DNA from: Candidatus Electronema aureum
GTDB taxonomy: Bacteria > Desulfobacterota > Desulfobulbia > Desulfobulbales > Desulfobulbaceae
Length of the DNA: 32,000 nucleotides
NCBI GenBank assembly: GCA_004284765.1
Contig: NQJD01000001.1
Coordinates: forward strand, 180,001-212,000
Direction of reading: 5' to 3'
The position numbers and the translations under genes are program-made. Below the pieces are notes generated by a model. That model did no database searches. It was not told the origin of the DNA and saw only the letters and a list, made by a program, of their open reading frames with translations. How positions within the stretch are numbered: the first letter of the stretch is position 1; every line of letters starts with the position of its first letter. Of this stretch, positions 2,931 to 20,689 are shown in pieces.

Positions 2931-4289
2931 CTATCCCCGTTGTAGGGTAAGCTCCTCCACCGTCCTGTCCACAAGCGCAACCGCGCTGCCGACATAACAT
3001 TCCGGGCTGTCCAAGGGAGCAAGGTCCTCCGCCGTGAACAATGCGCCAAGCTCCGTGTCGGCAAGCACCGCTGCTTTCAGGCTGACGCGCTCTTCAGCGG
3101 CAGAGGTGGCGAGCGTGTGCAGCTTCTCCATTGCTTTGTTCTTGCCCATCAACTTGCCTAATCGGAAGAGCAGCCATTCAGTGGCAATCAGGTCTTTCTG
3201 ACGATGCAAGTTGGCCAGCATCTGTGCAGGTCGGACAATCAGACCATTGAGAATCTGGAGCAGAGAGGATGCAGATGCGCCGGTATAGATACATATTTGC
3301 GGCATGGCCAGCCATTCTGCCCAGAGACAGCGGGGGTCGCGTTCATGCTCATGGGCCATGCTCTCAATGACGGTGCCGCTCAATGCCCGCACGTGCCTGC
3401 TCAAGGCGACAATGCGCTGGCAGAGCACCGGGTTCTGCTTATGCGGCATGGTGCTGCTGGCCACTGCGCCGGACGGCGGCGGCTCGCGCAGCTCGTCCAG
3501 CTCAGTCTTTTGCAACTGATAGATTTCGTTGGCGATCTTGGCCAAGGTCATAGTCAGCAGGGCGAAGTCCGAAGCCAGCTCCGCGATGCGGTCACGGGCC
3601 GTGTGCCAGGACAGCGGATCGTGCGCCAGACCAAGCAGCTCCATCGTCTCCTTGGCGACTTCGATGCCCTGCTCGCCCAACGCTGCGTATGTGCCGACCG
3701 CGCCGCTCAATTGCCCGCAGCAGACAGTGTCTTGCAGATGCCGCAGCCGCTGCATATGCCGGTCAATCTCGGCCGCCCACACCGCAACCTTCAGGCCGAA
3801 CGTTGTCGGCAGAGCCTGCTGACCATGCGTGCGGGCGGCCATCGGCGTGGCCCGGTGCTTGACGGCAAGATCAAGGCAGACCTCTTCCAAGCGCAGCAAA
3901 TCGCGGAGAATAATCGCCAGCGTCTCTTTCAACGCCAGAACTTGGCCGGTGTCGAGCACGTCCTGCGTGGTCGCGCCGTAATGGACATACTCGCCCGCGC
4001 CATCCGCGCAGGCCCGGCGCAGGCCGCCAAGCAGCGGCACCACCGAATTGCGGCTCTTGCTGTAGCCCTGACGCACGCTGTCGAGATCAAGGCACTCGAG
4101 CTTGGCCTTGCTTTTGATCTCCGCCGCCGCCGCTGCCGGAATCAGGCCGCGCCGGCCCTGCGCTTCAGCTAAAGCCGCCTCAAAATCGAGCCAGCGTTGC
4201 AGCACGGCGCGCTCGTCAAACAGGGCCTCCAGCTCCGGCGTGCTGAAGACATGCGGGTTGATCTGATAATCAAAAGGATGAACAGGCAT
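2931..4289 (-). CDS. adenylosuccinate lyase / 3-carboxy-cis,cis-muconate cycloisomerase family protein (class II fumarase-aspartase superfamily)
   Basis: 452-aa ORF with the superfamily signature SSTMPHKQNPV. The TTQD and HGQQA segments are typical of PurB/PcoB-type lyases. Confidence 0.8.
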   Translation of the reverse strand: MPVHPFDYQINPHVFSTPELEALFDERAVLQRWLDFEAALAEAQGRRGLIPAAAAAEIKSKAKLECLDLDSVRQGYSKSRNSVVPLLGGLRRACADGAGEYVHYGATTQDVLDTGQVLALKETLAIILRDLLRLEEVCLDLAVKHRATPMAARTHGQQALPTTFGLKVAVWAAEIDRHMQRLRHLQDTVCCGQLSGAVGTYAALGEQGIEVAKETMELLGLAHDPLSWHTARDRIAELASDFALLTMTLAKIANEIYQLQKTELDELREPPPSGAVASSTMPHKQNPVLCQRIVALSRHVRALSGTVIESMAHEHERDPRCLWAEWLAMPQICIYTGASASSLLQILNGLIVRPAQMLANLHRQKDLIATEWLLFRLGKLMGKNKAMEKLHTLATSAAEERVSLKAAVLADTELGALFTAEDLAPLDSPECYVGSAVALVDRTVEELTLQRG

Positions 4290-5754: not shown

Positions 5755-6936
5755 TCAGGCTGTTTGGGGATTCAGCTCGCCGTACGGCTTGGTGTCAGGA
5801 TAGAGCGGGGTCTCGGCGCAGATGCGCAGGGCGGCCTCGCGCGGAGAGATGCCCCCTTCGCGGCTGCGCTGGAGCATGTTTTTGACGATGCGGCGGGTCT
5901 TGCGGTCAACGTGATTGAGCACGTCCGGCACTGAGGGCAGCTCCTCCGGCCCAAACAGGCCCTGCATGGAGAGCGAGCCGCCGCAGCCTGCGACCATATC
6001 GGGAATGAGAAGAATGCCGCGCCGGTGCAGGACGTACTCGGCCTCGTCGGTCACAGCGAGATTCGCGCCGCAAGCAATGGCCTTGACCTGCATGGTTTCC
6101 GCCTCATGCACATCAACAGCGCGCTCTATCGCCGCAGGAACAAAGACATCGCAAGATATATTGTAGATGTCTTTCTTGTCACCATAATGAAATTTGCTTG
6201 CATCCTGCGCTGATGGAATCAGCCCTTTGCAGGCGGCGCCAGCCAGCAGCGCGGGCATGTCGAGCGGCGTGCCGTTGATGCTGCACAGGCTTCGTTCCCG
6301 GTCGGCCAAAGCGATGATGCGGACTCCCGCCTGATGGAGAAAATAGGATGCGCCTGCGGCCAGACCGCCAAAGCCCTGAATCACCACCCGCGCTTCCGGC
6401 AGGGGAATATTGAGGAATTCCAAAGCGGCCAAACAGGATGCGGCCAAGCCCGCGCCCGAACGCAGTCGGCTCAGAGTCGCATGACCAACCGGCTGCTTGA
6501 GGAGCTGCACCCGCTCGCTGAAGGCTTCAGGCGTGAAGCCCTGACACTTGGCAATCACCGCCTTGATCGAGGGAATGCCGATGCGGGCGCAGACCGCGTC
6601 TAACTCCGGCATGGTCGTGTTCAGGTCCGGCCCCATTGAATAGCGTTCGAGCAAATAGGGCTTGATCGCCCGGATGAAGCGGAACATTGCTTCGGACTTG
6701 CCCGGACTTGCAGGATCGTAGTCAATGCCGCACTTGGCCCCGTCCGCCCGGATGCCTGCGATGCGCATCTTCAGGGTCATGGTCGCGGCCAGTTCCTGCA
6801 CCACCTCGCGGGTCAGGCCGCGCTGCACTCTCATGCCGCCTGCGGCCATGCGGTGGGTCAACGAATCAATGACTAACCAGCCCTTGAATCCTTCCAGCGG
6901 GTCAGTGTATTCAACAATGAGTTCAGACTGTTTCAT
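5755..6936 (-). CDS. Glu/Leu/Phe/Val dehydrogenase family protein
   Basis: 393-aa ORF. The N-terminal dimerisation-domain pattern is GFKGWLVIDSLTHRMAAGGMRVQ, followed by the catalytic-Lys region DGAKCGIDYDP and the Rossmann segment VVIQGFGGLAAGA. Confidence 0.8.
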   Translation of the reverse strand: MKQSELIVEYTDPLEGFKGWLVIDSLTHRMAAGGMRVQRGLTREVVQELAATMTLKMRIAGIRADGAKCGIDYDPASPGKSEAMFRFIRAIKPYLLERYSMGPDLNTTMPELDAVCARIGIPSIKAVIAKCQGFTPEAFSERVQLLKQPVGHATLSRLRSGAGLAASCLAALEFLNIPLPEARVVIQGFGGLAAGASYFLHQAGVRIIALADRERSLCSINGTPLDMPALLAGAACKGLIPSAQDASKFHYGDKKDIYNISCDVFVPAAIERAVDVHEAETMQVKAIACGANLAVTDEAEYVLHRRGILLIPDMVAGCGGSLSMQGLFGPEELPSVPDVLNHVDRKTRRIVKNMLQRSREGGISPREAALRICAETPLYPDTKPYGELNPQTA

Positions 6937-6966: not shown

Positions 6967-7521
6967 TTATTCTTCGATGCGAATGGGGGTCTCGGCGTGC
7001 AGCTCGCCTTCATAAAAGGCGCGGATGATCGGCTTTTCCGGGTCAACCATAGAAATGATGAAGGAATACATCTTGCTGCCTTTGACCAAGACGGCATCGA
7101 GGCCGGTCGGGGTGTCGCGCAACGGGTCGCCGGGCCACGGCACCACGTGAATGTGGTACGCGCCAAACATGGTCAGGCCCTCGCGCTTGCACAAGTCCAT
7201 GCACTGCTTGAACTCAAACGGGTCAGTCACCCAGCCGCGCTGATCCATCGGCGTGGTTGAAGGCACGGCGTGCTGCTCCATGAGCTTGTCCATGAAGCTC
7301 TTTAATGGCTCGACGTTGCGGGCGTTCTTCTTGACCGGCAAGACCTGACGCACGTGCAGCTCATCGCCCTCACGCAGTCCGGCCAGAATGCCAAAGGCCC
7401 TCTTGACCTCGCTCTCGCCAGGGAGAAACGCACCGGCCAGCTTTCTTCGGCAATGGGCGATGATGCTGTCCCAGACGGAACGGGGAAGCCGTATCAGGCG
7501 TATTTCGTGCTGCCAGCTCAT
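6967..7521 (-). CDS. JAB/MPN (Mov34) domain-like metalloprotease family protein
   Basis: I moved the start to ATG 7521 (track M53) because the upstream extension overlaps dgkA. Candidate JAMM elements are E-x-x-x-x-FGILAG near the N-terminus and YHIHVVPW...DTPTGLD, an HxH...(S/T)xxD arrangement. Confidence 0.5.
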   Translation of the reverse strand: MSWQHEIRLIRLPRSVWDSIIAHCRRKLAGAFLPGESEVKRAFGILAGLREGDELHVRQVLPVKKNARNVEPLKSFMDKLMEQHAVPSTTPMDQRGWVTDPFEFKQCMDLCKREGLTMFGAYHIHVVPWPGDPLRDTPTGLDAVLVKGSKMYSFIISMVDPEKPIIRAFYEGELHAETPIRIEE

Positions 7522-8170: not shown

Positions 8171-8388
8171 CAAGCTATTGCAACAATCTGCTGGGTGCCG
8201 ACAAACTCAGAAGCGAACGAAGGCTCACCATCTTCAAGCAGCATTTCGATGACTTCCTTCAAGTTCTTGTTCAACTCATCCAGCGTTTCCCCTTGCGAGT
8301 GCGCTCCGGGGAAATGTGGCACATAGCCTACATAAAGACTGGTGTCTTTGCAATATTCAACCACGGCGGTGAATTGCATCCGCTTCAT
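8170..8388 (-). CDS. hicB: type II antitoxin HicB (UPF0150 fold)
   Basis: 72 aa. The sequence FTAVVEYCKDTSLYVGYVPHFPGAHSQGETLDELNKNLKEVIEM matches the HicB-like antitoxin pattern. Its ATG (8388) overlaps the stop of the upstream kinase-like gene as ATGA. Confidence 0.8.
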   Translation of the reverse strand: MKRMQFTAVVEYCKDTSLYVGYVPHFPGAHSQGETLDELNKNLKEVIEMLLEDGEPSFASEFVGTQQIVAIA

Positions 8389-9251
8389 AGCCCCAGCTCC
8401 TTATGCACTTTCTCCAGAGCCTTGGGCAGGCAGCGGAGGATTTCCTCCACCTGCGTGGCTGGCGTGGGATTGGCTAATTCACCAGCGGCGCGGTTCACGC
8501 GGCCAGCAATGCGGCAGGCGAGCAGCGGGCTACGGCCTGCGTGCATTAAGCCGCTGATCATGCCGGTAATCAGGTCGCCCGTACCACCAATCGGCTCCAT
8601 TGTCTCAATGCTCGGCAGCCTGATGGTGTCAACAATCTCGCCGTCCTGACAGATGTAATCCACCGCCCCTTTGACAAACATGGTCTTGGTGGCGTTGCCG
8701 CCCGCGTAAGCCCGGCGGATCAGCTCCGGCACGTCGTCTTCCATGTTGAAAATGAAGCCGCGTGTGTAGGCCGGATGATCGGCTTTCTCATCAGCCAGAA
8801 AGGTGGCTTCGCCAATGTCCGGGGTGAAGACATCGTAATACTTGGCATCGCCGCCCGCCTTGGCCACATACATGCTGCCTGCGTCGGCGATCATCAGCGG
8901 CTTTTCACTCATGGTGGCAACGGTCGCCAGCACCTTTTTGTTCAGCTTGAGATCAGGCATGACGTAGTGCATGGTCATCACCTTGACCCCCATCGTCGGC
9001 AGGTTTGCGGCAAGATGATTGTAAATTGCCGTGCTGCCCTCGCGTTTACCAATGTCGCCCGCCACCATGCCGATCGGCATCTCCACGCCGTATTCTTGGC
9101 AGATCAGGCTGGCGGCCTTCATCATCGCCTCGTTGCCACGGTTAATGGGCAGCTCGTGACCGTCAATCTTGATGCCGCGCTCGCTCAATGAGACTGGGCC
9201 GATCAGCAGGGGAAGGCGGTCAGCAGGAACCGCACCGACTAAGAGCAGCAT
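8385..9251 (-). CDS. YjeF_C / ribokinase-superfamily carbohydrate-kinase-like protein (NAD(P)HX-dehydratase-like)
   Basis: 288 aa. The segments TPDIGEATFL, FVKGAVDYI and the C-terminal GGTGDLITGMISGLMHAG parallel the TPHxGE / KGxxxxI / GGxGDxLxG motifs of YjeF C-terminal domains. Confidence 0.55.
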   Translation of the reverse strand: MLLLVGAVPADRLPLLIGPVSLSERGIKIDGHELPINRGNEAMMKAASLICQEYGVEMPIGMVAGDIGKREGSTAIYNHLAANLPTMGVKVMTMHYVMPDLKLNKKVLATVATMSEKPLMIADAGSMYVAKAGGDAKYYDVFTPDIGEATFLADEKADHPAYTRGFIFNMEDDVPELIRRAYAGGNATKTMFVKGAVDYICQDGEIVDTIRLPSIETMEPIGGTGDLITGMISGLMHAGRSPLLACRIAGRVNRAAGELANPTPATQVEEILRCLPKALEKVHKELGL

Positions 9252-9254: not shown

Positions 9255-9803
9255 TTACGCTCCAAGTTCCCGGATCATCTCTTCCCGGGCAGTGTTGAGG
9301 GAATAGGCGCAGAGGGAAAAGCCGACTTCGTCCGGCGCGGGTGCTTCGTCCAGCCGCTTGCCGATCATGGTCGTGGCGAGATAAGGCACGTCCGGGCAGC
9401 CGCCGCCGGAAATATTGACGATGATCTTGGTCTCTGCGTCAACGGTGATTTTCATGTTCGCCGCCCTGACCATCAGATACTTGCTGCCATACCACTTCTT
9501 GCGGACAAAGTGCAGTGGCTCCATGCCTTCAGTGGTGATCGGCACCACGTCAATCGGATGCAGCTTGGTCGCATTGAGCAGCTCGGTGATGGCCGCCTCA
9601 GCTTCCAGCGGGAATTCCACGCTCAGGTCGCAGCCGGTGCGGTAGGCAGGCGGCGGACTAACCACGCGGATTTTATAGCCCTCGTCACGCAGCAGCTCCT
9701 CCACCGCGATGACGGTGGTCGGATGGGCGAAGATCAGCAGACCGCGAGTGACGTTCTCGTGCTGCGGCTCTTGAGACGTTTCCTTTTTTTTAAACCAGTT
9801 CAT
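9255..9803 (-). CDS. DUF3343 (putative Se/S carrier-like) domain protein with a C-terminal Cys-Pro motif domain
   Basis: 182 aa. The N-terminal half LLIFAHPTTVIAVEELLRDEGYKIRVVSPPPAYRTGCDLSVEF fits the DUF3343/Se_S_carrier pattern with its conserved Cys. The C-terminal half has NISGGGCPDVPYLATTMIGKRL, which resembles the TusA/YedF CPxP loop (weak call). Confidence 0.55.
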   Translation of the reverse strand: MNWFKKKETSQEPQHENVTRGLLIFAHPTTVIAVEELLRDEGYKIRVVSPPPAYRTGCDLSVEFPLEAEAAITELLNATKLHPIDVVPITTEGMEPLHFVRKKWYGSKYLMVRAANMKITVDAETKIIVNISGGGCPDVPYLATTMIGKRLDEAPAPDEVGFSLCAYSLNTAREEMIRELGA

Positions 9804-9830: not shown

Positions 9831-10248
9831 TTATTTCAGCAAACGAAGAAAGCCTGCCTGTTCAAAATGATGATCCGTTGTCAATGCCTTGGTAATGCTG
9901 CGTTGTTTCATTAGAACAAAACTGGCGCAATCAACCAGACTCCAATCCTTGTCGGTCCGTTGCTGATACAGCCGCCATGCCTGCTCATCAAGGGCTTGAT
10001 CAACATGAATCACTTCAACATAGGGTGAAGTTTTGATGCCTTCAAGAAACTCGATGATTGATGGACGCGGCAGATGCAGCGGACTGCTCATCAACGCGGC
10101 AAGCTCGGTGATGATATAATTTGTCGTGATCAGCCTTGCCTGCTGCTGCCGGACGTTGCGGTATATTGCCGCAGCAAGAACATGGTGTTTCTGTGTCGCA
10201 TCAATTAAACAGCCCCCAGCCGGAAGTGTCTGCGAAAAGACTATTCAT
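9831..10248 (-). pseudogene. vapC: PIN-domain (VapC-like) toxin interrupted by a +1 frameshift in a G5 run
   Basis: ATG 10248 overlaps the antitoxin stop (ATGAATAG) and reads MNSLFADTSGWGLFN-TGA. The adjacent frame continues GCLIDATQKHHVLAAAIYRNVRQQQARLITTNYIITELAAL and joins the track ORF 9831..10094 (DKDWSLVDCASFVLMKQRSITKALTTDHHFEQAGF). Removing one G from GGGGG (plus-strand C run 10213-10217) restores a 138-aa PIN protein. Confidence 0.7.
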
Positions 10249-10477
10249 CGTCCTGCTGCGACTGCCCTATGTATTTGTCGTGATTATCCGTCCAGTCAGG
10301 ACAGCCGCTCCTAAATGCGCCAATGAATTTTTCCAGCGGATCGATGTCAACGCTGCGTGTGAACAACGAAAGCCATTGCGCAGCCAGCACTTCCGGCAAC
10401 TGGCCTGCCTGCTCCGCTGCCCGCCGAAGCTGGAGATAAACCTCCTCGGAGACATTCAATGTCAAACTTTGGCTCAT
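10241..10477 (-). CDS. antitoxin-like small protein partnered with the PIN gene
   Basis: 78 aa, acidic C-terminus. It lies immediately upstream of the PIN ATG and overlaps it by 8 nt. The N-terminus LTLNVSEEVYLQLRRAAEQAG looks like an RHH/CopG-type strand-helix. The family was not identified. Confidence 0.55.
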   Translation of the reverse strand: MSQSLTLNVSEEVYLQLRRAAEQAGQLPEVLAAQWLSLFTRSVDIDPLEKFIGAFRSGCPDWTDNHDKYIGQSQQDDE

Positions 10478-10591: not shown

Positions 10592-11503
10592 TTATTTTTC
10601 AGGCCAACCAAGATACACAATATATGCAGTTGGATATTTTTCAGAATCAATTCTTTCGTTATTGAAATTAGCATTTAAGAACATATTCATGTTCTCCCAA
10701 CCTGACTTTGAATATGATTTGCTAAAAAAATAGTCAGCGAACACCAAAGCCAGTGTTGTTGATGAAGTTCCATTTGGCTTTATGTTGATCTGTAGTCCTC
10801 TCTCGTTTGCATATTTTTTAATATCTTCAATTTTTGGCAGAGTGCATTCTAAATGTTCCTTTGCCCATTCAGCTCCGGTGATTTCCATCACGAGCTTTTC
10901 ACTCTCCTCTGTAAAACTTTTGTCTACATGGAACGGATTTAAAAGAATAATGCCATTTTTACTCTTGGATAATAGTTGATCTATAAATTTTATTCTGTTT
11001 GTAACAGGTATATGTTCAAGAACATGACAAGAGACAACATAGTCAAATGAATGGTCAGGAAATGGTAAATCTATCCCTGAAATACCGTTCATATTAGGTT
11101 CTGCTAAACAATAGTAAGCTTCAGGGATAAACGAAGCTAACCTTCCGTCACCTCCACCTACATCCAGTACACTATATTTACCTCCACTGTTCCTGCTCCT
11201 TAGCTCCAATGCAAGAGATTTAAGCCTGAAATACTGATTATGATTCATAATATCTATCCGAGGCATCTTGGATAAAATTATTTTTTTGTATCGCTGCACT
11301 TCTGCATCCGTTGCATCTAAAAATTCAGCTGTTTTGATCTCAGCTATTGATAAATAGTAATGCTTCTTTCCGAAAGCATAAACAGCATATTGGAAATGTA
11401 TTTTTGAGTTTAAAGGATCGCTTGAAATTTTATTCACGAATTCCCTGTAGCCTTTTTTATATCCAAATTGCCTCGCTATATTCAAAAGAGTTATTTTGAG
11501 CAT
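10592..11503 (-). CDS. class I SAM-dependent methyltransferase (Methyltransf_11-like), AT-rich
   Basis: 303 aa with motif I VLDVGGGDGRL and the post-I/II segment FDYVVSCHVLEHIP. SD AAGGA lies 7 nt before ATG 11503. Sample line 10621 has 15/60 G+C, against 36/60 in the neighbouring yedE line 11581. Confidence 0.8.
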   Translation of the reverse strand: MLKITLLNIARQFGYKKGYREFVNKISSDPLNSKIHFQYAVYAFGKKHYYLSIAEIKTAEFLDATDAEVQRYKKIILSKMPRIDIMNHNQYFRLKSLALELRSRNSGGKYSVLDVGGGDGRLASFIPEAYYCLAEPNMNGISGIDLPFPDHSFDYVVSCHVLEHIPVTNRIKFIDQLLSKSKNGIILLNPFHVDKSFTEESEKLVMEITGAEWAKEHLECTLPKIEDIKKYANERGLQINIKPNGTSSTTLALVFADYFFSKSYSKSGWENMNMFLNANFNNERIDSEKYPTAYIVYLGWPEK

Positions 11504-11530: not shown

Positions 11531-12595
11531 TTACCTGTCGATAATTTTCCTGCGATACGCCAGCACCACAGTCAAACAAAATATCAGCCCGGCCAGCGTG
11601 GCAATCTTGCCGTTGAATTCCGGGCCAGCTGAAGTGCTGCGGAGCTGCCAGCTCACGACAAAGGCCGCGCCGGTCAGCATTCCGAAGCAGGTCAGACCTG
11701 CGTCCACATCGCCTTGTCCTGCCTTGACGAGCTGGCGGAACGGGCAGCCGTCCACGATTACCGCAGCCAAGCCGACCAGCACCATCGCCAGAAAGCTCCA
11801 GAGGTTGTCGGAATGCGCGCCCGGCTGGTCATAAAAGCCGAGATTGAACTGGCCGCTGACCAAGGAGACCAGCAGGGCCGAGCCAAAGGCGGCGATGATG
11901 CCCATGAGCAGGGTTTTTTCCCGGAAAAGGAAGAAGTTGCGCAGGCCGCCGGTGATGCAGAGGCCAGACCGCTGCGATAGTGCGCCGATGAGCAGGCCGA
12001 CTGCTAACGAAACCAAAAGCGGCGCGTGCTGGGCTGCCGGGCCTGTGGCTCCCTGCTGAATGAAGCCGGGCTGAAGCAGGGCGAAGAGCAACAGAAGCAG
12101 GCCGATGCCGGGCAGAATGTAGCCGTTGATCTGCGGCAGCTCGCGGTCTCTGTCCAAGACCGAACCGGCGCGGATGTAACGACTGCCGAGCCAGATGCCG
12201 AACATCAGGCCAAGCACGGCGGCAATCGCGGTCAGATCGCCAGCGGCGAGGCGCAGAATCATCTTGATCGGGCAGCCGATGAAGACCCCGCAGCCGACGA
12301 TCATGAAAAAGCCGAGCAGAAAGCGGATCACTGGCGAGGAGCCGCCAGTCACCCGGAAGCGGCGCATCTTCTTGGCCATCAGGAAGGAGCCGAGGAGAAA
12401 GCCGATCAGCTCCGGCCTGATGTAGCTCATGCGGGTGACGTTGTGCATCTGGAGCGAGCCTGCCAAGTTCTCCAAAAAGCAGGAGATGCAGATGCCGGAG
12501 TTGGTCGGATTGCCGAGCAGGGTCAGGATGACCGCGCCCGCGCCGAGGACAATGCCGGTGGTCACGGCAAGATCAGGGAATTTCAGACGTGCCAT
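11531..12595 (-). CDS. yedE: YedE-family membrane protein (putative selenium/sulfur-compound channel)
   Basis: 354 aa and polytopic. The N-terminal GNPTNSGICISCFLENLAGSLQMH matches the GNPxNxGxCxxCF...H motif I associate with the YedE putative selenium-metabolism subfamily. A second-half repeat is SGLCITGGLRNF. Confidence 0.75.
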   Translation of the reverse strand: MARLKFPDLAVTTGIVLGAGAVILTLLGNPTNSGICISCFLENLAGSLQMHNVTRMSYIRPELIGFLLGSFLMAKKMRRFRVTGGSSPVIRFLLGFFMIVGCGVFIGCPIKMILRLAAGDLTAIAAVLGLMFGIWLGSRYIRAGSVLDRDRELPQINGYILPGIGLLLLLFALLQPGFIQQGATGPAAQHAPLLVSLAVGLLIGALSQRSGLCITGGLRNFFLFREKTLLMGIIAAFGSALLVSLVSGQFNLGFYDQPGAHSDNLWSFLAMVLVGLAAVIVDGCPFRQLVKAGQGDVDAGLTCFGMLTGAAFVVSWQLRSTSAGPEFNGKIATLAGLIFCLTVVLAYRRKIIDR

Positions 12596-13153
12596 TTATT
12601 CACATCCGCCAGCCAGCCGCCGCTGGACGTAAAGCAATTCATTCAATGCCCTTTTGATGTCGGGATCATTGGGCTTCAGCGTGACTTCGCGCTGCAATTT
12701 GTCTTTTGCTTCCAGCATGTTCTTCTTGATGTCCTTGCCGACAAAAAGGGGCGATTTCCGGTCGATATAGCCCGGCTCGCGGTCAATGGCCTGTCGATAG
12801 CTGGCCAACGCATCGGCAAGGTCGCCGTTGTCGTATTGGAGCTGGGCCTGCCAGAGGAACGAGCGGGGATTGTCCGGTTGCGCGGCCTGAATCAACTTCA
12901 GCTTGTCCATTGCCGCGCTGTGCTGCCGTTGCTCGGCCAAGGCGGCTACTTCCTGATACAGCACCTTGTCCTGAGCCAGCCGCTCCTCAATCCGGCGCAG
13001 CTCCGCCGCCACGCCGCTCATATTGGCGGCGTTCGGAGAAGCGGTTAACTGATGCTGCACCAGCATAACCAGCATAATCACTGCCAGCAGGCCCAGCGCG
13101 GCTTTGGTGAGCAAATCCAGCGGATCGCTGGTCAATGTCTGCGCGAAATTCAT
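12596..13153 (-). CDS. membrane-anchored TPR-like protein ending in GGCE
   Basis: 185 aa with one N-terminal TM (AALGLLAVIMLVMLV), a coiled region, and the TPR-like segment WQAQLQYDNGDLADALASYRQAIDREP. Its stop TAA (12598-12596) directly abuts the yedE ATG (TAAATG). Confidence 0.6.
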   Translation of the reverse strand: MNFAQTLTSDPLDLLTKAALGLLAVIMLVMLVQHQLTASPNAANMSGVAAELRRIEERLAQDKVLYQEVAALAEQRQHSAAMDKLKLIQAAQPDNPRSFLWQAQLQYDNGDLADALASYRQAIDREPGYIDRKSPLFVGKDIKKNMLEAKDKLQREVTLKPNDPDIKRALNELLYVQRRLAGGCE

Positions 13154-13168
13154 GAGGATCAGACTATA

Positions 13169-14128
13169 TCAGAGAATTCCGGCTCCGGCAACAGCGGCTG
13201 TATAAAAATTACTCAAATCCGCCTTACCGAGGACGCTATCGCCGATTTTATCCAAAACTTTCTCACGAATTTTCGACTCATCCGCAGTGCCCCACCAATT
13301 CTTGGGGAAGGCGAGGTCATTAGCCTGCCCTTCCAGCATGGACAGATTATAATCCTTGCTGTCGGTGATGTTGTTGTCGCTCAACAGCATGGCTTTGACC
13401 GCATACAGAATCACGCCTTTGCCGTTGCCGCTGATATTATTGAACTGCACCTTGCCGTCGGCAAGGTTCTTGCCATAAATTCCGAAGAACTCGTTCTTGC
13501 TGATCTCGTTGTGAGAAACAACCATGCCGTCGCCGACAACCACGCCGCCGCCGTTTTCAGTGATCAGGTTGTTCTCCACGAAAATTTCACACTTGATCGG
13601 ATTGTCCTTCAGGTTCTTGTTGCCGATGGCGGTGCCGTTGTGCTTGAACTCGTTGCTGGCAACTTTCACTTTGGAGGAATGCGCATGAACACCGGTGTCC
13701 GCATACAGGATCACGCAGTGTTCTAGCACATTGTCCACGCTGCTGTTGAAGTTGATGCCGCCCCAGTCGCCGGGCTTCGGCTCTTTTTCCGCGCTGGTGA
13801 AGGTTATTTTTTTTTCTCTACTGCCTTGAGCAAGTAATTTGCCTTGAATAAAAAGCTCTGCCCGAGGGAAATGGTTCTCCTTTTCTTTTTCCGGGAACAG
13901 CTTGTCCGGGCCAAAAGGCTCAACTTTGGCAAAACGGACTATGGTGCCGGGCATGATGGTCAAAGTGACATTTTTTGCAATCTGCACATCACCTTTGATT
14001 AGAATTTCCCCAGACCAAGCAGTGTCTTTGTCGATTACCCCTTTATTGACTACTGTTTCCGCGCTGAAAGCGGGCTGGAAACTCAGAAACATCGCCGCTG
14101 TAGCGGCAAAAAAAGACAGTATTTTCAT
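13169..14128 (-). CDS. secreted right-handed parallel beta-helix repeat protein (NosD/CASH-like)
   Basis: 319 aa with signal peptide MKILSFFAATAAMFLSFQPAFSA. It has repeated N-x-I/V-x-x-N turns (ENNLITENGGGVVVG, HNEISKNEFFGIY, FNNISGNGKGVILY, LSDNNITDS). SD GAGGA precedes ATG 14128. Confidence 0.7.
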   Translation of the reverse strand: MKILSFFAATAAMFLSFQPAFSAETVVNKGVIDKDTAWSGEILIKGDVQIAKNVTLTIMPGTIVRFAKVEPFGPDKLFPEKEKENHFPRAELFIQGKLLAQGSREKKITFTSAEKEPKPGDWGGINFNSSVDNVLEHCVILYADTGVHAHSSKVKVASNEFKHNGTAIGNKNLKDNPIKCEIFVENNLITENGGGVVVGDGMVVSHNEISKNEFFGIYGKNLADGKVQFNNISGNGKGVILYAVKAMLLSDNNITDSKDYNLSMLEGQANDLAFPKNWWGTADESKIREKVLDKIGDSVLGKADLSNFYTAAVAGAGIL

Positions 14129-14157
14129 TATATCCTCTTAGAATGAGAATGTTGCGC

Positions 14158-15090
14158 TTAGTGCTTGTCGTAGGGGGGCATATTGCAGCGTTTCAGCTTT
14201 TCCCGGATGATATCGTACTCGCTGTCCACTGCTGGGGCAAAGCCATCTAAGCCCATCCGCTTCAGCACCTTCAGCACCTCGCCATCGATCAACACGGTCT
14301 CATCTTTCTTCAGATTAAGAGCCAGATTTTTGACCTTCTCCTTCAAAGCCGGATCAACATGCGGGAGTGCGCCAATGGTGCAGTACGGCATCGGCTCGCT
14401 CTCAGCGATGATGTTGTAGTCATCCAGATTGATGATCTCACTTTTTGCCATCCGGTCAAGGTCAATGCGCGGCGCGGCACCGACATCATATTTGCCGTAT
14501 TCTACGCCGTACATGATCTTGTCATGCTTGAGCGAGCCAGGCGGAATGTCATAACGGGCAAGGTCGGTCTCCGGGTCTATGCCGTTTTCCAGCAGCATCG
14601 CATACTGGGCCATGTAGCCGAACGGAGCCAAGGCCGGGCCGAAGAGCACTGTTTTTCCCTTGATATCAGCGATGGTCTTGATACCGCTTTCCTTGCGGGC
14701 GATCAGGGTGCCTGTGGCTTTGTGGCCGTTGCGTCCCTGCATATCTACTCCCAAGAAATCGGCCTTGAGCCGCTCCTTCAGTACCACCGCAACGGCTGAG
14801 TTGACGTGAAAGAAATCGAACTCCTTGTTCTTCGCTGCCGCTTCTACATCAAAGGTATTCTTCAGTACCATTTCCACCTTCCGGCCCAGCTTTTCGCTGA
14901 GATAGGCGGTGAAGGGGGCAAAGCGCTCAGAGGACAGCTCGCGGCTATCACAAATCATATAGCAGAAGCGGAGCGGCGGTTCCGTGCTTTCCGCAGCGGT
15001 CTTTTTGTCCTGTTCACCGTTACAGGCCTGGAGCGAGAACAGAGCTGCGGCGAGTAAACAATATTGCGTAATTTTTTTCATTGTTTGCAT
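14158..15090 (-). CDS. PhnD-like (phosphate/phosphonate-type) periplasmic substrate-binding lipoprotein
   Basis: 310 aa with the lipobox LFSLQAC. It shows the type-2 SBP pattern (LRFCYMICDS..., FDFFHVNS, GKTVLFGPALAPFGY, YDVGAAP) typical of the PhnD/TAXI-like family. No permease or ATPase gene is adjacent. Confidence 0.65.
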   Translation of the reverse strand: MQTMKKITQYCLLAAALFSLQACNGEQDKKTAAESTEPPLRFCYMICDSRELSSERFAPFTAYLSEKLGRKVEMVLKNTFDVEAAAKNKEFDFFHVNSAVAVVLKERLKADFLGVDMQGRNGHKATGTLIARKESGIKTIADIKGKTVLFGPALAPFGYMAQYAMLLENGIDPETDLARYDIPPGSLKHDKIMYGVEYGKYDVGAAPRIDLDRMAKSEIINLDDYNIIAESEPMPYCTIGALPHVDPALKEKVKNLALNLKKDETVLIDGEVLKVLKRMGLDGFAPAVDSEYDIIREKLKRCNMPPYDKH

Positions 15091-15111
15091 TCAGATGGGA
15101 AAGGAGGGAGT

Positions 15112-15606
15112 TCAGGACTGGCTGATCAGTTTGATCTCGTTCTGGACAGCGGCAGCACCTTCTGGGCCGGGAGCTAACTCGCCTGCCTTCTTCAGGGCGG
15201 CTGTGGCTTGTTCAGCCTGCTTGAGCTGCTCATGAACGAGAGAAAAATGCACATGCAGCATGGCATCTTTGTCGTTGATCGCCAAGGCGCGTTCCAGATA
15301 TTTCAATGCCTCATCAGCCTTCTTTTGCTTGAGCAGGATGATGCCCATACCGTCCAGCGCATCGAAATTTGATGTATCCTTTTTTAGCACACCTTCTAAT
15401 TCCTGCACAGCCAAATCGAGCTGCTTGGTGCGAACATAGGCCATAGCCAAATTGTTTTTAGTTTCCGCATCATTGGCATCCATGTACAGCAGCATCTTGT
15501 ACTGCATGATCTGGACTGAATCCGGTAGTTTGGAAATATCGCCGTGTGCTGCCGCTGAACCTGCTGACATGGCCAGCAGGAAAAGGGCGAAAAGCAGTTT
15601 TTGCAT
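15112..15606 (-). CDS. secreted TPR-repeat protein
   Basis: 164 aa with signal peptide MQKLLFALFLLAMSAGSAAA. Three to four TPR units are visible (NNLAMAYVRTKQLDLAVQELEGVLKKD, DALDGMGIILLKQKKADEALKYLERALAIN). SD GAGAGG precedes ATG 15606. Confidence 0.75.
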   Translation of the reverse strand: MQKLLFALFLLAMSAGSAAAHGDISKLPDSVQIMQYKMLLYMDANDAETKNNLAMAYVRTKQLDLAVQELEGVLKKDTSNFDALDGMGIILLKQKKADEALKYLERALAINDKDAMLHVHFSLVHEQLKQAEQATAALKKAGELAPGPEGAAAVQNEIKLISQS

Positions 15607-15618
15607 TGTCTTTGCCTC

Positions 15619-16197
15619 TCAGATCAGTTTTTGAGCTTTCAAGATATCTTTAGCCGCAGCTGCTGGGTCACTGCCTTGGCTTTTCTGGATCATTTCTTGC
15701 ACCGTGGCATCATTGACCATGCCGCTCAGTTTGTTGATTACTCGATCTAAAACCGGAAATTTACCCAGCGCATCGCGGGGAGAAACCGGCACAGCTATGG
15801 AGGCTTCAGCCTGCTGCGCTGCTGGCCCCTTAAAAGCGAACGGCTTCAGCCAGACGATATTTTTGTTTTCCATATAGAATTCTTTAGCCTTGGTATAGGC
15901 TTCCTGCTCATCTTGGGGCTGCTCACCACCCATGCTTGCCAAGGCGGGCTTGAGGTACTGAATGCAGACATCAGTGGTGCAAGAACCGTCTTTGCTCTCT
16001 GGATTCTCAACCAAATTAACCGTAGTACCAGTGCGCTCGTTGATATAGGTGGCCATGAGCTGGCCGATTGCCTTTTGCTCCGCCGAGCCATCAATCGACA
16101 AATTGAGAATCCGACCCACACAACTGTAGCTGGGGGTGGCGGTCAATGCCGTCAGCAGAACAGTGCCTGAGAGCAGAGCCGCAAGTTTTTGTGCCAT
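15619..16197 (-). CDS. secreted OpuAC-like (glycine-betaine-type) substrate-binding-domain protein, short form
   Basis: I chose the start at ATG 16197 (SD GAGGA 8 nt upstream). Alternative in-frame starts are 16227 and 16251. Signal-like N-terminus AALLSGTVLLTALTA. The segments LNLSIDGSAEQKAIGQLMATYINERTG, VWLKPFAFKG and FPVLDRVINKLSGMVNDATVQEM resemble OpuAC-family segments. Confidence 0.45.
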   Translation of the reverse strand: MAQKLAALLSGTVLLTALTATPSYSCVGRILNLSIDGSAEQKAIGQLMATYINERTGTTVNLVENPESKDGSCTTDVCIQYLKPALASMGGEQPQDEQEAYTKAKEFYMENKNIVWLKPFAFKGPAAQQAEASIAVPVSPRDALGKFPVLDRVINKLSGMVNDATVQEMIQKSQGSDPAAAAKDILKAQKLI

Positions 16198-16369
16198 TTT
16201 TTTCCTCACTTTTTTATTGAACTTCATCAGGTGAAATGAGTATATGCTCATAACAAGGTATCCTGTTTTTGCTGAAAATAAAAGAAAAAGAGTCAGTCAT
16301 CCCAGCTCATGCTGGTCTGCCGCTGAAGCAGAGACGAAGCAACAACCATGTTCAGAAATAGCATATCAG

Positions 16370-17752
16370 TTACAGCCAGTCCAGCACTTTCCACCAAAAA
16401 AAATTGATTGGCAGAAGGACGAAGACTGTAACCAAGGCTAAAGGAACGCATATCTTGGCGGCACTGGACAATTTTTCACCGGCAAGCTGAAGGCCGACGA
16501 CAATCGGTGGCCCCTGATAGGGCAGCAGCACGGTGGCAAAACCTGTCACCTGCATCATAAGCAAGGATTCTGTTTTCAGACCTGTGGCTTGTGCCAAGCT
16601 ATCAGTAAGCGGAGTAAACACCGCAGGCACGGCAGGCAGGGTAGTGACAATGCCGGTGAGCGCAGAAGCTATGCTGATCGACATGTAGTTGATAAAATCC
16701 TGCTGCGGAGCCAAGGGCAGTAACTTGAGCAAAGCATCAGCAAAAATGCGATCCAAGCCTGTTTTGCCGATCATTCCGCCCAGACCGAGGATCCCGGCGG
16801 TGAAAAAAATTGAAGCCCAGTTGAGTTTCTGATTGAACTGCGCGGTGCTAACGATGTCGATGCCAGGCATCATCAAGAAAAATGCTCCGCCAAGAGCAAT
16901 CCACGCTGGGGAAATATGATGAAAAAAATCAGTGAGCCACAGCATAAGCATAAGCGGCAACACAGCCGAGAGAATCATCTCATTACGGGTCAATGGCCCA
17001 GCAACGTTTTGGTTCTGCTCAAGTCGTTCGACAGCTTTATCTGGATAAAAGAAAACAATCAGGGCGGCGATAATCACCGCTTTGGCTAAGGTCAGGAGCG
17101 GAAAATGCAGGAGCAGATAGGAACCGTAGAGCAGAGAAATTTTGTATTTGGTCTCAGCCATACCTGCCAGCACCACGTTGGGTACATTGGCAGGCAGGAT
17201 GCCAAAGGCCGGAATGTAGGTACCGAGAATAACTGCTAGCATGATGCCAGTGCGGCCTTTTGAGCCTTCTCTAAAACCGAAATGATCGGCGATAGAAAGT
17301 GCTATAGGGATCAGCAAAACAACCCTACCCATCGAAGAGGGCATCAAAAAGCTGAACAGCACCACTGCCGCTACTAAGCCGCCGATGATTTTCACATAAC
17401 TGCCGTGCAGCTGAGTTGCGGCATATCGTCCGATTCTGCCGCCCAAGCCGGTGGAGCTAATCGCCGCGCCGATCACAAGGCCGCCAAAGACTAACCAGAC
17501 CGCTGCCGAAAAAAAACCGGAAAAAACTATCTCTTTCGGCGCAACTGAAAAAAGCATTGCCAGCAGGAAAAAAAGCAGCGCAGTGAGATGTTCAGGAATC
17601 AGGGCAGTTGCCCAAAAAGCAAGAGTCAGGAGAGCAATGGACGAGGCCTTTGCTGCTGCTGAAATCGGAGCAAATTGGAGAAAGACAACTCCCGCAATGG
17701 ACAGAAGCAGGGTAAGGATCTGGAAGGCGTTTTTGCTGCTAGGCTGGCTCAT
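16370..17752 (-). CDS. SLC13/DASS-family anion permease (ArsB/NhaD superfamily)
   Basis: 460 aa and highly hydrophobic, with a two-fold internal architecture. It has hairpin-like SxxP/NVPN motifs (GILPANVPNVVLAG, TTLPAVPAVFTP) typical of DASS transporters. Confidence 0.7.
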   Translation of the reverse strand: MSQPSSKNAFQILTLLLSIAGVVFLQFAPISAAAKASSIALLTLAFWATALIPEHLTALLFFLLAMLFSVAPKEIVFSGFFSAAVWLVFGGLVIGAAISSTGLGGRIGRYAATQLHGSYVKIIGGLVAAVVLFSFLMPSSMGRVVLLIPIALSIADHFGFREGSKGRTGIMLAVILGTYIPAFGILPANVPNVVLAGMAETKYKISLLYGSYLLLHFPLLTLAKAVIIAALIVFFYPDKAVERLEQNQNVAGPLTRNEMILSAVLPLMLMLWLTDFFHHISPAWIALGGAFFLMMPGIDIVSTAQFNQKLNWASIFFTAGILGLGGMIGKTGLDRIFADALLKLLPLAPQQDFINYMSISIASALTGIVTTLPAVPAVFTPLTDSLAQATGLKTESLLMMQVTGFATVLLPYQGPPIVVGLQLAGEKLSSAAKICVPLALVTVFVLLPINFFWWKVLDWL

Positions 17753-17986
17753 GCGCTGAGAAAAGGTTTCAATTTAACGAAAAGCATCAAGTGGTTGAAT
17801 GCACCCTGCGCTGAGTATGAAAACGCGCTTGCAGAATACTACTACTTGCCGCAGGTGACGAGGTCAAGCAAAAATTGCAGCGCGGACAGACAGAAACAGG
17901 TTGCATGAACCGGGCATTATGATTTAGTAGTAATACAATCCTTGGCGGCAGCATCACTGCCTGCCTCTGAGAACAACCAAGAAGCA

Positions 17987-19177
17987 ATGAGAATCATGCC
18001 CAATTTTTCCAGCCGAATTAAAACGCATATCATCGGGATGTTTGCTATTTTTTTTCTGATCACCCTGCCCGTAACGGTCATCAGCTTTTTGCAAACCCCT
18101 GAGTATGAAGTAAGCTCCAGCATTTTGCTCCGACAGGGCAAACGCGGCAGCGCAGACCTAAAAACTGAGTTAGCTGTCCTGCAAGGCAATGTATTGGCCG
18201 AGCAGGTGTTAGCCGCAGTGGGTGCGGAGCAGCTTTTTCCTGAGCCGGGCGAGGTGGGAAGAGTGCGGCAATTTCAGCAGCGATTAGAGGCGCATCTGGT
18301 CCGTCGCTCTCGTATCGTGGAAATACGCTTCCGACATCCCGACCCTGAACTGGCTGTTAAAACAGTCACTACGGCAGTGAGGCTGTTCGGACTGGAGTTA
18401 GAAAAGCTCGATGATCCTCAGTCTGTGCTGCTGGAAGAAGAGCTGCTGCTGCGCAGGAAGCAACTTCAGCAGGCACAGAACGTCCTTTCGATGTTCCGGC
18501 AGAATAGCAGACTGCACACACCTGATGGACAAATGCGGCATCTATCGATTGAACGCGGGCGGCTTGAAGCAGTGGTGGCCGAAGAGAGCAAAAGGGAATT
18601 AGAGTTAGCCGGTGAACTGGATGAACTGCGGCGGCAGTTCGCTGCAGTGCCGGTTAAGACAGAAGCAAGCAGAAATGAATTTTTGGAGATGAAACTGTAC
18701 CGACACGAACTACTGCGCAAGTATGACGAGAAAAATCTATTAATTGCCTCAGTTGAAGAGCAGTTAGCAAAGATACGGCAACAGTTGCAAGGCGGCGATG
18801 CGTTGGAAGCACTTGCGGATTGGATTGTACTGGCTAATGCCGCGCACAGCAGGCAAAAGGAGGGCAAGGAAGTAGCGCAGCTCCAACTTAGTCAGCTGAC
18901 TGACCAGCAGCGGCAGCAAGTGGAGCAGGATGATCTCTTCAGCAGCTTAGAAGTTGAGGTGGATAAAAGCAGGGAGCTGTACGCCCAGCAGCTCAATAAA
19001 ATTGAAGCAAATCGGAAAGCTGGAGCGAAGGAAGGACAGGTAACGGTCATTGAACAGCCCCTGCTGCCCTTAGAGACAGTCAGGCCAAAAAAACTGCGCA
19101 ATATCTTAACTGCAGTTTTTTTCGGCCTGCTGTGCAGCCTGCTGTACGTTTTTTGCCGACAGCAGCGTAAACGGTGA
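17987..19177 (+). CDS. polysaccharide chain-length determinant (Wzz/GumC, PCP family) without a kinase domain
   Basis: I placed the start at ATG 17987 (the track start is a TTG). TM1 is IIGMFAIFFLITLPVTVISFL, followed by PEYEVSSSILL and a long coiled-coil periplasmic region. The Pro-rich segment EQPLLPLETVRPKK precedes the C-terminal TM ILTAVFFGLLCSLLYVF. Confidence 0.7.
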   Translation: MRIMPNFSSRIKTHIIGMFAIFFLITLPVTVISFLQTPEYEVSSSILLRQGKRGSADLKTELAVLQGNVLAEQVLAAVGAEQLFPEPGEVGRVRQFQQRLEAHLVRRSRIVEIRFRHPDPELAVKTVTTAVRLFGLELEKLDDPQSVLLEEELLLRRKQLQQAQNVLSMFRQNSRLHTPDGQMRHLSIERGRLEAVVAEESKRELELAGELDELRRQFAAVPVKTEASRNEFLEMKLYRHELLRKYDEKNLLIASVEEQLAKIRQQLQGGDALEALADWIVLANAAHSRQKEGKEVAQLQLSQLTDQQRQQVEQDDLFSSLEVEVDKSRELYAQQLNKIEANRKAGAKEGQVTVIEQPLLPLETVRPKKLRNILTAVFFGLLCSLLYVFCRQQRKR

Positions 19178-20661: not shown

Positions 20662-20689
20662 TTGACTTTTTTGAATATGCTTGTATAGT
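20662..20689 (+). promoter_or_regulatory. candidate sigma70 promoter for the integrase
   Basis: TTGACT (20662-20667), a 16-nt spacer, then TATAGT (20684-20689), in an AT-rich intergenic region about 58 nt upstream of ATG 20747. Confidence 0.4.

Follow-up and report, generated by a model that had tools for sequence, protein, structure and literature searches.

Six adjacent minus-strand genes of Candidatus Electronema aureum, a freshwater cable bacterium, may form the envelope half of a conserved, ATPase-independent system that traffics chalcogen (sulfur, possibly selenium) around a YedE-family channel. The genes, here G1 to G6, lie in a 32-kb window (the whole stretch of DNA that was analysed) and encode, in order, a reduced substrate-binding protein (SBP) fold, a TPR protein, a PhnD/PtxB-fold lipoprotein, a beta-helix protein, a membrane-anchored TPR-like protein and YedE itself. 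This proposal is drawn from gene conservation, proteome detection and sequence features, and we hold it tentatively, at a little under an even chance. An earlier note on the same DNA had interpreted the genes as a self-contained operon in which two SBPs dock on YedE, in the manner of TRAP transporters, to take up a selenium or sulfur species. Part of that interpretation stands, since the genes do occur together, no ATPase or ABC permease accompanies them and the channel is a bona fide TIGR04112 YedE, whereas the self-contained unit, the TRAP-like docking and the selenium assignment lack support or call for revision.

Arrangement and conservation of the six genes

Listing of the open reading frames (ORFs) confirmed six minus-strand ORFs with the ends reported earlier: G1 at 15619-16251, G2 at 15112-15606, G3 at 14158-15090, G4 at 13169-14128, G5 at 12596-13153 and G6 at 11531-12595. 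With these longest-ORF starts we also reproduced the reported gaps of 12, 21, 29, 15 and 0 nt. Two genes probably start further downstream. For G1 the likelier start is 16197 (192 amino acids) and not 16251, because its orthologues begin there and a GAGGA sequence lies 7 nt upstream; G3 probably starts at 15081 (307 amino acids according to gene callers) and not 15090. With the revised starts the gaps are 12, 30, 29, 15 and 0 nt, the distance between G2 and G3 being 30 nt.

The domain calls of the earlier note (OpuAC, TPR, PhnD-like, NosD/Beta_helix, anchored TPR and YedE) all held in hidden Markov model searches. As judged by direct reading of sequences and alignments, each of the first five products carries the export or anchoring signal that had been claimed: signal peptides on G1, G2 and G4, a lipobox on G3 and a hydrophobic anchor on G5. 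A domain scan of the whole window found no ABC, TRAP or tripartite tricarboxylate transporter (TTT) gene, in agreement with the earlier reading. A promoter and terminator scan between the six genes returned nothing convincing and no intrinsic terminator, and thus gives no evidence of independent units. An explanation by a riboswitch or leader RNA was rejected, as no Rfam family reached its gathering score in the whole window; at E <= 1 the leader regions gave one chance miRNA-like match only.

To compare genomes we used 86 loci, 75 from an alignment of G4 homologues and 11 from look-ups, and related them by a tblastn map and all-against-all ORF clustering. Forty-nine of these, with a close G4 (>= 44% identity), are termed type-1 loci. 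All six genes are present in order in 37 of the 49, as either G1-G2-G3-G4-G5-G6 or G1-G3-G2-G4-G5-G6, and among the remaining 12, nine are cut by contig ends or are too short and three lack a detectable G2 only. The earlier note had named conserved co-occurrence and gene order as a check, and recurrence of the set in 37 of 49 loci indicates an arrangement far beyond chance. The refuting condition of that note, homologues that fail to occur together in other genomes, clearly does not apply. The hosts are Electronema, Electrothrix, Desulfobulbus, Desulfocapsa, SEEP-SRB2-type and other Thermodesulfobacteriota, with a variant form in Geobacter. Even the most distant G1 homologues (38-43% identity) are found within the same cluster. 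Walker A and LSGGQ motifs occurred together in 4 of 1366 neighbourhood ORFs, none of them adjacent to the cluster. Additionally, neither DctP/TctC SBPs nor DctQM or TctAB subunits were found in the window or the related loci, placing the cluster outside the TRAP and TTT families.

A second group, the type-2 loci of Desulfobulbales, Desulfurivibrionaceae and Geobacter/Geomobilimonas, keeps a core of beta-helix protein, G5, YedE, beta-helix protein and MFS permease. These loci (L052-L083; for example L053 2975-12211 and L055 155-15968) are more divergent than type 1, and their order is CarboxypepD_reg/OmpA, a beta-helix protein of ~830 amino acids, another CarboxypepD_reg protein, G5, YedE, a beta-helix protein of ~330 amino acids and MFS. 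In Geobacter/Geomobilimonas they also contain a multihaem cytochrome, ResB-like and NicO/DsbD_2-like membrane proteins and two radical-SAM/SPASM proteins, and HupE/UreJ occurs in L074, L075 and L083. A NicO/DsbD_2-type membrane protein follows G1 in several variants (L085 4000-4815; L037, between G1 and G2; L055 8491-9435). Its role could be that of a CcdA-like conduit for thiol reductant, holding the cysteines of the periplasm in the reduced state, or that of a nickel permease.

YedE and its anchored partner G5

G6 (11531..12595, minus strand) is a polytopic membrane protein that belongs to the YedE family TIGR04112 (seleno_YedE), which it matches at 398.7 bits against a cut-off of 200 over model positions 3-336 of 337. 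It scores 46.5 bits against Sulf_transp. Its 25 bits against the TsuA model NF041049 (cut-off 645) leave it outside the thiosulfate transporters. A phmmer search with G6 against the solved YeeE chains gave no match at E <= 1, searches of PDB sequences with G4, G6 and the DUF3343-DUF8182 protein described below returned nothing, and no TusA/SirA domain was present among the neighbour genes of yedE. The GNPxNxGxCxxCF motif pointed out in the earlier note is present and is invariant in 59 homologues. YedE has six invariant cysteines, C36, C39, C102, C108, C213 and C284, which include a CxxC pair.

Directly upstream, G5 (12596..13153, minus strand) encodes a single-pass membrane-anchored TPR-like protein with a hydrophobic anchor and weak TPR matches only. 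Its stop codon abuts the yedE start codon in Electronema aureum (0 nt), yedE begins 0-12 nt past the G5 stop among homologous loci, and the two genes adjoin in at least 60 loci. G5 is translationally coupled to yedE.

The Electronema aureum G5 ends R-R-x-A-G-G-C-E, and the 60 locus homologues share, without exception, a C-terminal tail R-[RK]-x-A-G-[GS]-C-[EG], with endings AGGCE and AGSCG and, in one homologue, AGGCGG. The codons of the tail vary freely: four glycine, two cysteine and six arginine codons are all used, indicating a constraint at the level of the protein. A constraint on the nucleotides, such as a ribosome-binding site for yedE, was therefore rejected. A search of 1.84 billion representative proteins yielded at least 44 further 50%-identity clusters of G5-like proteins of 150-190 amino acids that share the anchor, a P[DE][YF][VL]D[KR] motif and the tail. 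The wider family consists of small anchored proteins ending Y-[LIM]-x-R-[RKS]-x-A-G-[GS]-C-[EDGS] (12596-12622 in the window), for which no model exists. A near-terminal or penultimate cysteine on a glycine-rich tail is a hallmark of the sulfur carriers SoxY (GGCGG) and DsrC/TusE.

The binding-protein-like products G1 and G3

G1 (15619..16197, minus strand; longest ORF to 16251) is a small secreted protein with an OpuBC/EgtUC-like fold. It matches OpuAC PF04069 at 22.4 bits (cut-off 21.2), over profile positions 186-256 and within its C-terminal 70 residues only, and all 260 homologues are about 190-205 amino acids long. The AlphaFold2 (AF2) model of G1 has a predicted local distance difference test (pLDDT) score of 84 and, in Foldseek, gave TM-scores of 0.69 by query (TMq) and about 0.49 by target (TMt) against SBPs of ~270 residues (OpuBC, EgtUC). 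Judged by this model, G1 is a reduced SBP fold comprising only about 60% of an SBP, and it is not a full two-lobe OpuAC/OpuBC-type SBP of ~270 residues. The signal peptide is followed by an invariant cysteine within a non-canonical lipobox, and the predicted mature N-terminus is an invariant C-V-G-[RK].

G3 (14158..15090, minus strand; likely start 15081) is a lipoprotein (lipobox LQAC) with the PhnD/PtxB fold and a remodelled pocket. The fold assignment is firm (Phosphonate-bd PF12974, 152.8 bits, E = 1.3e-44), and the closest solved relatives are PtxB, PhnD, HtxB and ArrX. However, G3 falls below the cut-offs of the functional models, with 89 bits against the PhnD equivalog TIGR03431 (cut-off 261.1), 82.4 against TIGR01098 (112.05), 54.7 against the putative selenate SBP model TIGR04553 (250) and 21 against TRAP_TAXI (84). 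In Te_PtxB the ligand is held by Tyr55, Tyr100, Ser-Thr-Ser130-132, His160 and a capping Tyr208 (PMC5700983). We mapped the G3 pocket by alignment to these residues. His160 is retained as H189 and the latch residue D22 as D48, directly after the invariant C47, while Y55 is replaced by F80, S130-T131-S132 by A155-P156-F157 and the capping Y208 by an invariant C237. The PtxB/PhnD ligand-binding constellation is thus missing from G3. With the Ser-Thr-Ser and tyrosine residues lost and a cysteine at the cap, the alignment argues that G3 is not a binder of phosphonate, phosphite or another hard oxyanion, and that its pocket cap holds two cysteines, C47 and C237. Neither an ABC permease nor an ATPase cognate to G3 was found, whether in the window or adjoining the cluster in the 86 loci. 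Both G1 and G3 form tight dedicated subfamilies found only in this cluster.

These features bear directly on the model of the earlier note, in which G1 and G3 would be classical high-affinity SBPs for a selenium (or sulfur) oxyanion that dock non-covalently on YedE and supply selenium as in TRAP or TTT systems. The SBP folds of both proteins are confirmed and no ABC partner is present; the channel is a seleno_YedE, and a DUF3343 "Se/S carrier" lies downstream. The SBP-like proteins are also abundant, as is typical of scavenging systems, G3 shows the weak match to the selenate SBP model (54.7 bits), and yedE of M. maripaludis is induced 5.3 log2-fold under selenium starvation (PMC11097638). On the other side, G3 has a cysteine at the cap and is without the Ser-Thr-Ser and tyrosine residues by which PtxB and PhnD hold oxyanions, its TIGR04553 score is far below the cut-off (55 versus 250), and G1 is about 60% of an SBP. 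SelD, SelA, SelB and MnmH are missing by name from the lists of core and expressed cable-bacteria proteins, no selenocysteine/cysteine exchange is seen, and G2, G4 and the cysteine tail of G5 are left unexplained. We consider this model unlikely. The reduced fold of G1, the loss of the Ser-Thr-Ser and capping tyrosine residues from the G3 pocket and the cysteine tail of G5 all speak against TRAP-like docking; the reduced fold, the invariant cysteine of G3 and the tail instead suggest a covalent or thiol-mediated hand-over.

The secreted proteins G2 and G4

G2 (15112..15606, minus strand) is a secreted TPR protein (TPR_2, E = 8.7e-13). Its AxA-type signal peptide ends at an AxA|H-[GP] junction kept in 34 orthologues, so that the predicted mature protein begins with an invariant histidine.

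G4 (13169..14128, minus strand) is a secreted right-handed beta-helix protein, also with an AxA-type signal peptide, and is 100% identical to the annotated "NosD" protein of Ca. Electronema aureum. It matches the generic Pfam families NosD (43.6 bits) and Beta_helix (41.5 bits) but scores 23.9 bits against the NosD model TIGR04247, with a cut-off of 300. The AF2 model is a confident beta-helix (pLDDT 88.7), and the best Foldseek matches, AlgG, AlgE4, PL6 lyases and tailspikes, are generic (TM 0.3-0.45), with NosD outside the top 50. On the basis of the TIGR04247 score and the fold matches we ruled out G4 as a NosD orthologue. Additionally, no NosF, NosY, NosL or NosZ gene was found in any examined locus. 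A motif H148-x-H150 is conserved in both locus types, and C138 is invariant in type-1 loci.

A cytoplasmic module downstream of yedE and expression of the cluster

The six genes are not a self-contained operon, as the earlier note had it, but the front half of a cluster of ~15 genes that continues into a cytoplasmic carrier-protein and biosynthetic module. Outside Electrothrix, the order past yedE is a DUF3343-DUF8182 protein, a Carb_kinase-like protein, a ThiS-like protein, a JAMM/MPN-like protein, an ELFV dehydrogenase, two proteins of the adenylosuccinate-lyase family and a ThiF/MoeB-type E1. The DUF3343 (Se_S_carrier)-DUF8182 protein (9255..9803, minus strand; PF11823 E = 6.5e-16, PF26554 on record) is the most conserved protein of the cluster, with 76% mean column identity and invariant C58, C136 and C165, and its gene directly follows yedE in about 25 loci. 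The window also encodes, on the minus strand, a Carb_kinase/YjeF-C-like protein, a ribokinase-fold kinase or dehydratase relative (8385..9251; PF01256 E = 2.8e-10), an ELFV-family amino-acid dehydrogenase (5755..6936; PF00208 and PF02812, and synteny) and an XcbD-like enzyme of the adenylosuccinate-lyase family (2931..4289; Lyase_1 E = 9e-42; 442.8 bits against NF052536 XcbD, cut-off 600). The JAMM/MPN-like gene (6967..7521, minus strand), which lies between ThiS and the ELFV dehydrogenase in relatives, has no Pfam match; a profile of 15 orthologues matched 2KKS (MPN family) at 6.7e-6 and P. furiosus JAMM1 at 0.07, with the HxH and T-x-x-D residues aligned.

The loci of relatives contain genes for ThiS, a second lyase and ThiF that the Electronema aureum window does not have. 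The ThiS/ThiF/JAMM trio is co-encoded in orthologous loci (PF02597, PF00899/MoeB models and the MPN-like profile), and the window has the JAMM-like gene only. The Electronema aureum cluster is split by apparent insertions: a low-GC (0.43) methyltransferase gene directly after yedE, a PIN-like ORF with a small partner ORF, HicB/HicA, a diacylglycerol kinase gene and an ORF of 356 amino acids that matches no family. The inserted ORFs are at 10592-11503, 9831-10094, 10241-10477, 7937-8388 and 7547-7933 (all minus strand) and at 4452-5522 (plus strand).

The cluster is expressed. In the supplementary tables of cable-bacteria proteomes from Plum-Jensen et al., ISME J 2026 (PMC13293266), all five non-channel proteins G1-G5 and the kinase-like protein were detected, with intensity-based absolute quantification (iBAQ) values of 3e6 to 4e7. 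G3 (3.8e7), G1 (3.1e7) and G4 (2.8e7) are close to ribosomal proteins in the same tables, followed by the kinase-like protein (1.2e7), G2 (9.9e6) and G5 (3.0e6). The 1215-gene core of seven cable-bacterium genomes contains YedE, G1-G4, DASS, DUF3343, the kinase-like protein, the dehydrogenase, the JAMM-like protein and one lyase (PMC13293266).

The module and the metal-like sites also fit traffic in the opposite direction. In this case the product of the ThiS/ThiF/lyase module would be activated sulfur or a sulfur-rich ligand, exported through YedE (or the DASS or MFS permease), and the secreted cysteine- and histidine-bearing proteins would assemble a periplasmic metal-sulfur cofactor as the NosD machinery does for N2O reductase, in cable bacteria possibly the nickel bis(dithiolene) cofactor of the conductive fibres. 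ThiS/ThiF chemistry is that of the molybdopterin dithiolene. G4 has a NosD-type beta-helix domain, the N-terminal histidine of G2, the N-terminal cysteine of G1 and the HxH of G4 resemble metal sites, and NicO/DsbD_2- and HupE/UreJ-like genes occur in variant loci. The parts are core and abundant in cable bacteria, where the biosynthesis of the fibre cofactor is unknown and no nickel-protein candidate was found (PMC13534509, PMC11976967). However, non-cable Desulfobulbales, SEEP-SRB2 and Geobacter have the cluster just as cable bacteria do, while the Raman signature of the fibres is reported in cable bacteria only (PMC13534509). The characterised YeeE/YedE relatives are importers, NosF, NosY, NosL and NosZ are absent, G4 scores 23.9 against the 300 of TIGR04247, and the metal sites are assigned by sequence position only. 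Export in this form is improbable.

Genes adjacent to the cluster

Polysaccharide genes are frequent neighbours. A GNVR (polysaccharide co-polymerase-like) gene lies divergently at 17942..19177 on the plus strand of the window (PF13807 E = 1.6e-10), and GNVR/Wzz and Poly_export genes flank the cluster in about 30 loci, usually divergent and co-directional in L085. G2, G4 and G5, with G1 and G3, could be a periplasmic scaffold and modification complex for the exopolysaccharide that these neighbours export, similar to AlgK/AlgG/AlgX, with YedE and the downstream genes unrelated or loosely linked. In favor of such a role, G4 is structurally most similar to AlgG, AlgE4 and PL6 alginate lyases, and TPR proteins are typical of exopolysaccharide secretion (weak PrsT, PgaA and BcsC matches were seen). 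Yet TM-scores of 0.3-0.45 are those of a generic beta-helix match, type-2 loci keep the beta-helix protein, G5 and YedE but not GNVR, and G5 is translationally coupled to yedE in at least 60 loci. Moreover, G1 and G3 are restricted to this cluster, and the conserved residues are cysteine and histidine, not the acidic ones typical of carbohydrate-active sites. The probability of a polysaccharide function is low, on a level with that of export. In the upstream regions of L004 and L084 a Pel9A-like beta-helix protein is encoded nearby, and L004 also has multihaem cytochromes.

A permease is usually adjacent as well, so that YedE is not the sole candidate membrane partner. In the window it is a DASS/SLC13-type permease of 460 amino acids (16370..17752, minus strand; Na_sulph_symp E = 3.9e-30, CitMHS; TIGR00785 113 bits, below cut-off). 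DASS lies directly upstream of G1 on the same strand in 32 loci, and MFS_1 follows yedE instead in L085, L086 and type-2 loci. A weak hairpin and T-rich tract lie between the DASS gene and G1, so that DASS is only a candidate member of the operon. G1 and G3 might be the SBPs of DASS (or MFS), forming with it a secondary transporter. Its substrate would be an organic anion that provides the downstream pathway with a carbon skeleton, and YedE-G5 would supply sulfur independently. DASS and the TRAP subunit DctM are members of one ion-transporter superfamily, MFS replaces DASS in some loci, and the downstream lyases are of the fumarate/succinyl-adduct type. However, the complete loci L007, L030, L034, L045 and L046 keep G1-G6 with neither an upstream DASS nor a detected MFS, the G3 pocket has cysteine and hydrophobic residues in place of a carboxylate-binding arginine, and we know of no SBP-dependent DASS or MFS transporter. 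We regard this arrangement as very improbable.

Farther to the right, a DUF1641 protein adjoins a Pyr_redox_2/FCSD-central flavoprotein (22780-24842, minus strand). Both are cable-bacteria core genes, and the two look like a sulfide:quinone oxidoreductase or flavocytochrome-c-like pair. The right part also encodes a tyrosine recombinase (20681-21886, plus strand), a 1258-residue CARDB/Big_9/cadherin-domain protein (25731-29507, minus strand) and a 760-residue SLH-domain protein (29504-31786, minus strand). GC content falls to 0.35-0.39 at the right end (30000-32000), which suggests acquired cell-surface genes. Beyond the lyase gene on the left are MnmA, a tRNA 2-thiouridine synthase (593-1666, minus strand), and a Spherulin4-like protein (2033-3064, minus strand). 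Because the Spherulin4 ORF runs ~130 nt into the lyase ORF, the TTG taken as its start probably lies too far upstream. Linkage of MnmA to the cluster was not seen in the other loci.

Discussion

In the chalcogen-trafficking model that we favor, the task of G1-G4 in the periplasm would be to capture and process sulfur or selenium species that are reduced or thiol-reactive. G3 would contribute a cysteine-capped pocket that no longer fits an oxyanion and G4 a beta-helix platform with an HxH site, while G1 and G2 may be accessory binders or scaffolds. The cysteine on the flexible C-terminus of G5 would then receive the cargo as an adduct, bound covalently or through a thiol, and the tail would present it to the cysteine-lined pore of YedE. 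In the cytoplasm the DUF3343-DUF8182 protein would accept the cargo and feed a ThiS-type carrier pathway that, together with the kinase-like enzyme, two lyases and the dehydrogenase, may lead to a small thiol or selenol metabolite.

Sulfur is somewhat likelier than selenium as the cargo. The earlier assignment to selenium goes back to family names, and such hints are still names: TIGR04112, Se_S_carrier and a LysR_Sec_metab match below cut-off in one relative. No selD, selA, yedF or selenocysteine lyase gene was found by name or domain in the window or the 86 related loci, and in no orthologue does selenocysteine (TGA) stand in place of a conserved cysteine. SelD, SelA, SelB and MnmH are likewise absent by name from the published lists of core and expressed cable-bacteria proteins, an indirect indication because loss from one genome drops a gene from the core. 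A transporter dedicated to selenium is not yet known from any organism (PMC11097638).

Several observations weigh against the model, whose weakest steps are the direction of import and the identity of the cargo. The putative link of the cluster proteins to sulfur or selenium comes from sequence, and deletion of yedE in M. maripaludis gave no clear selenium phenotype, leaving a selenium role of YedE unproven (PMC11097638). A soft metal is a third possibility, which we keep because of the N-terminal histidine of G2, the N-terminal cysteine of G1, the HxH of G4 and the NicO/DsbD_2- and HupE/UreJ-type neighbours in variant loci. The orientation of the G5 anchor is ambiguous by charge bias, and its cysteine arm could lie in the cytoplasm and act as a TusA/TsuB-like acceptor, not as a SoxY-like donor. 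In fold, G4 comes closest to polysaccharide epimerases and lyases, and the cluster has conserved polysaccharide-export genes as neighbours. G1 and G3 could in reality work with the adjacent DASS or MFS permease. Finally, in Electrothrix the downstream genes are retained but scattered, so that the cytoplasmic module is not adjacent (published core-genome table).

The most specific form of the export idea, that the cluster is a metal-sulfur cofactor assembly line in which a sulfur-rich (dithiolene-type) ligand or activated sulfur leaves through YedE-G5 (or DASS/MFS), G1-G4 load the metal and, in cable bacteria, this ancestral machinery supplies nickel bis(dithiolene)/ethene-tetrathiolate fibre units, has the slightest probability of all, because the cluster is equally present in non-cable relatives.

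Among known systems, the closest in logic to the proposed hand-over appears to be the route from SoxYZ through SoxT to TusA, not TRAP. In Hyphomicrobium denitrificans, sulfane sulfur is proposed to pass from the SoxY cysteine through the YeeE-like SoxT1A to cytoplasmic transferases (PMC11582611). On the favored model, the SoxYZ-SoxT1A-TusA/Rhd route would share with the cluster a cysteine on the glycine-rich C-terminal arm of a carrier (SoxY, to which the G5 tail is comparable), a cysteine-lined YeeE/YedE-family protein, a cytoplasmic cysteine carrier and the absence of an ATPase. It differs in that G5 is TPR-like with a membrane anchor and does not have the Ig-like fold of SoxY, that SoxXA, SoxB and SoxZ are absent here, that YedE is a TIGR04112 protein outside the SoxT/TsuA branch, and that the acceptor would be DUF3343-DUF8182 instead of TusA. 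Nothing in the Sox system corresponds to the beta-helix and SBP-like partners.

TsuA(YeeE)-TsuB(YeeD) and YTD (YeeE-TusA-DsrEFH type II) similarly pair a conserved-cysteine channel with an adjacent, dedicated cysteine-bearing partner. In contrast, the cluster contains a different paralogue (TsuA 25 versus 645 bits) and no TusA-like gene, its partners are secreted or anchored, and YTD lies elsewhere in the genome. A YTD cluster is present in the same cable bacteria, and it is this other YeeE paralogue, YTD/DsrEFH type II, that papers on cable-bacteria sulfur genes describe (PMC13293266, PMC13047784). We rejected identity with that published cluster, since it is another paralogue at another locus and neither TusA nor DsrE is found here. 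The YedE/YedF and DUF3343 selenium candidates of Lin et al. 2015 (PMC5322559) resemble the cluster in that G6 is a TIGR04112 protein followed by a conserved-cysteine DUF3343. However, YedF, SelD and selenocysteine lyase are not neighbours here, DUF3343 is fused to DUF8182, and the periplasmic partners and the ThiS/ThiF/lyase module are not part of that description (PMC5322559).

Other likenesses are partial. TRAP and TTT systems also combine an extracytoplasmic binding protein with a non-ATPase membrane component, the logic proposed in the earlier note, but G1 and G3 come from ABC-type SBP families and are reduced (G1) or cysteine-capped (G3). In NosDFY-NosL, the maturation machinery of nitrous oxide reductase, a periplasmic NosD-type beta-helix protein acts on a metal-sulfur site together with a membrane component and small lipoprotein chaperones, and G4 passes the Pfam NosD threshold, whereas the membrane partner here would be YedE instead of an ABC-type complex, and NosF, NosY, NosL and NosZ are missing. 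CysO-CysM-Mec+, HcyS-HcyF-HcyD and QbsCDE encode together a ThiS-, ThiF/MoeB- and JAMM-like trio, as the orthologous loci do, here beside a membrane protein of the sulfur-import type; in place of CysM or MetY the cluster has two XcbD-like lyases, an ELFV dehydrogenase and a Carb_kinase-like protein.

The view that no system of this composition has been described is upheld, in that we found no published description of it, including by the combination of YedE with NosD and by locus tags. None of the cluster proteins appears in the supplements of PMC11976967, a study that found no nickel-protein candidate for the conductive fibres, and papers on nickel homeostasis and the conduction machinery of cable bacteria do not mention the cluster genes. 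Known families here make up an undescribed architecture, and the G5 family is not represented by a model.

The passage of sulfur across the inner membrane in Desulfobulbales and cable bacteria is only partly understood. The cluster gives YedE-family channels a defined and conserved set of partners, namely the tail-cysteine anchor G5, the cysteine-capped PhnD fold G3, the mini-SBP G1 and the beta-helix protein G4, and it ties YedE to a biosynthetic pathway, not yet characterised, that uses a carrier protein. In cable bacteria the cluster proteins are abundant, and it is there that the source of the sulfur-rich nickel cofactor of the fibres is still being sought. On the conservative reading, if true, the cluster would be a new ATPase-independent architecture for the hand-over of chalcogen from the envelope to the cytoplasm.

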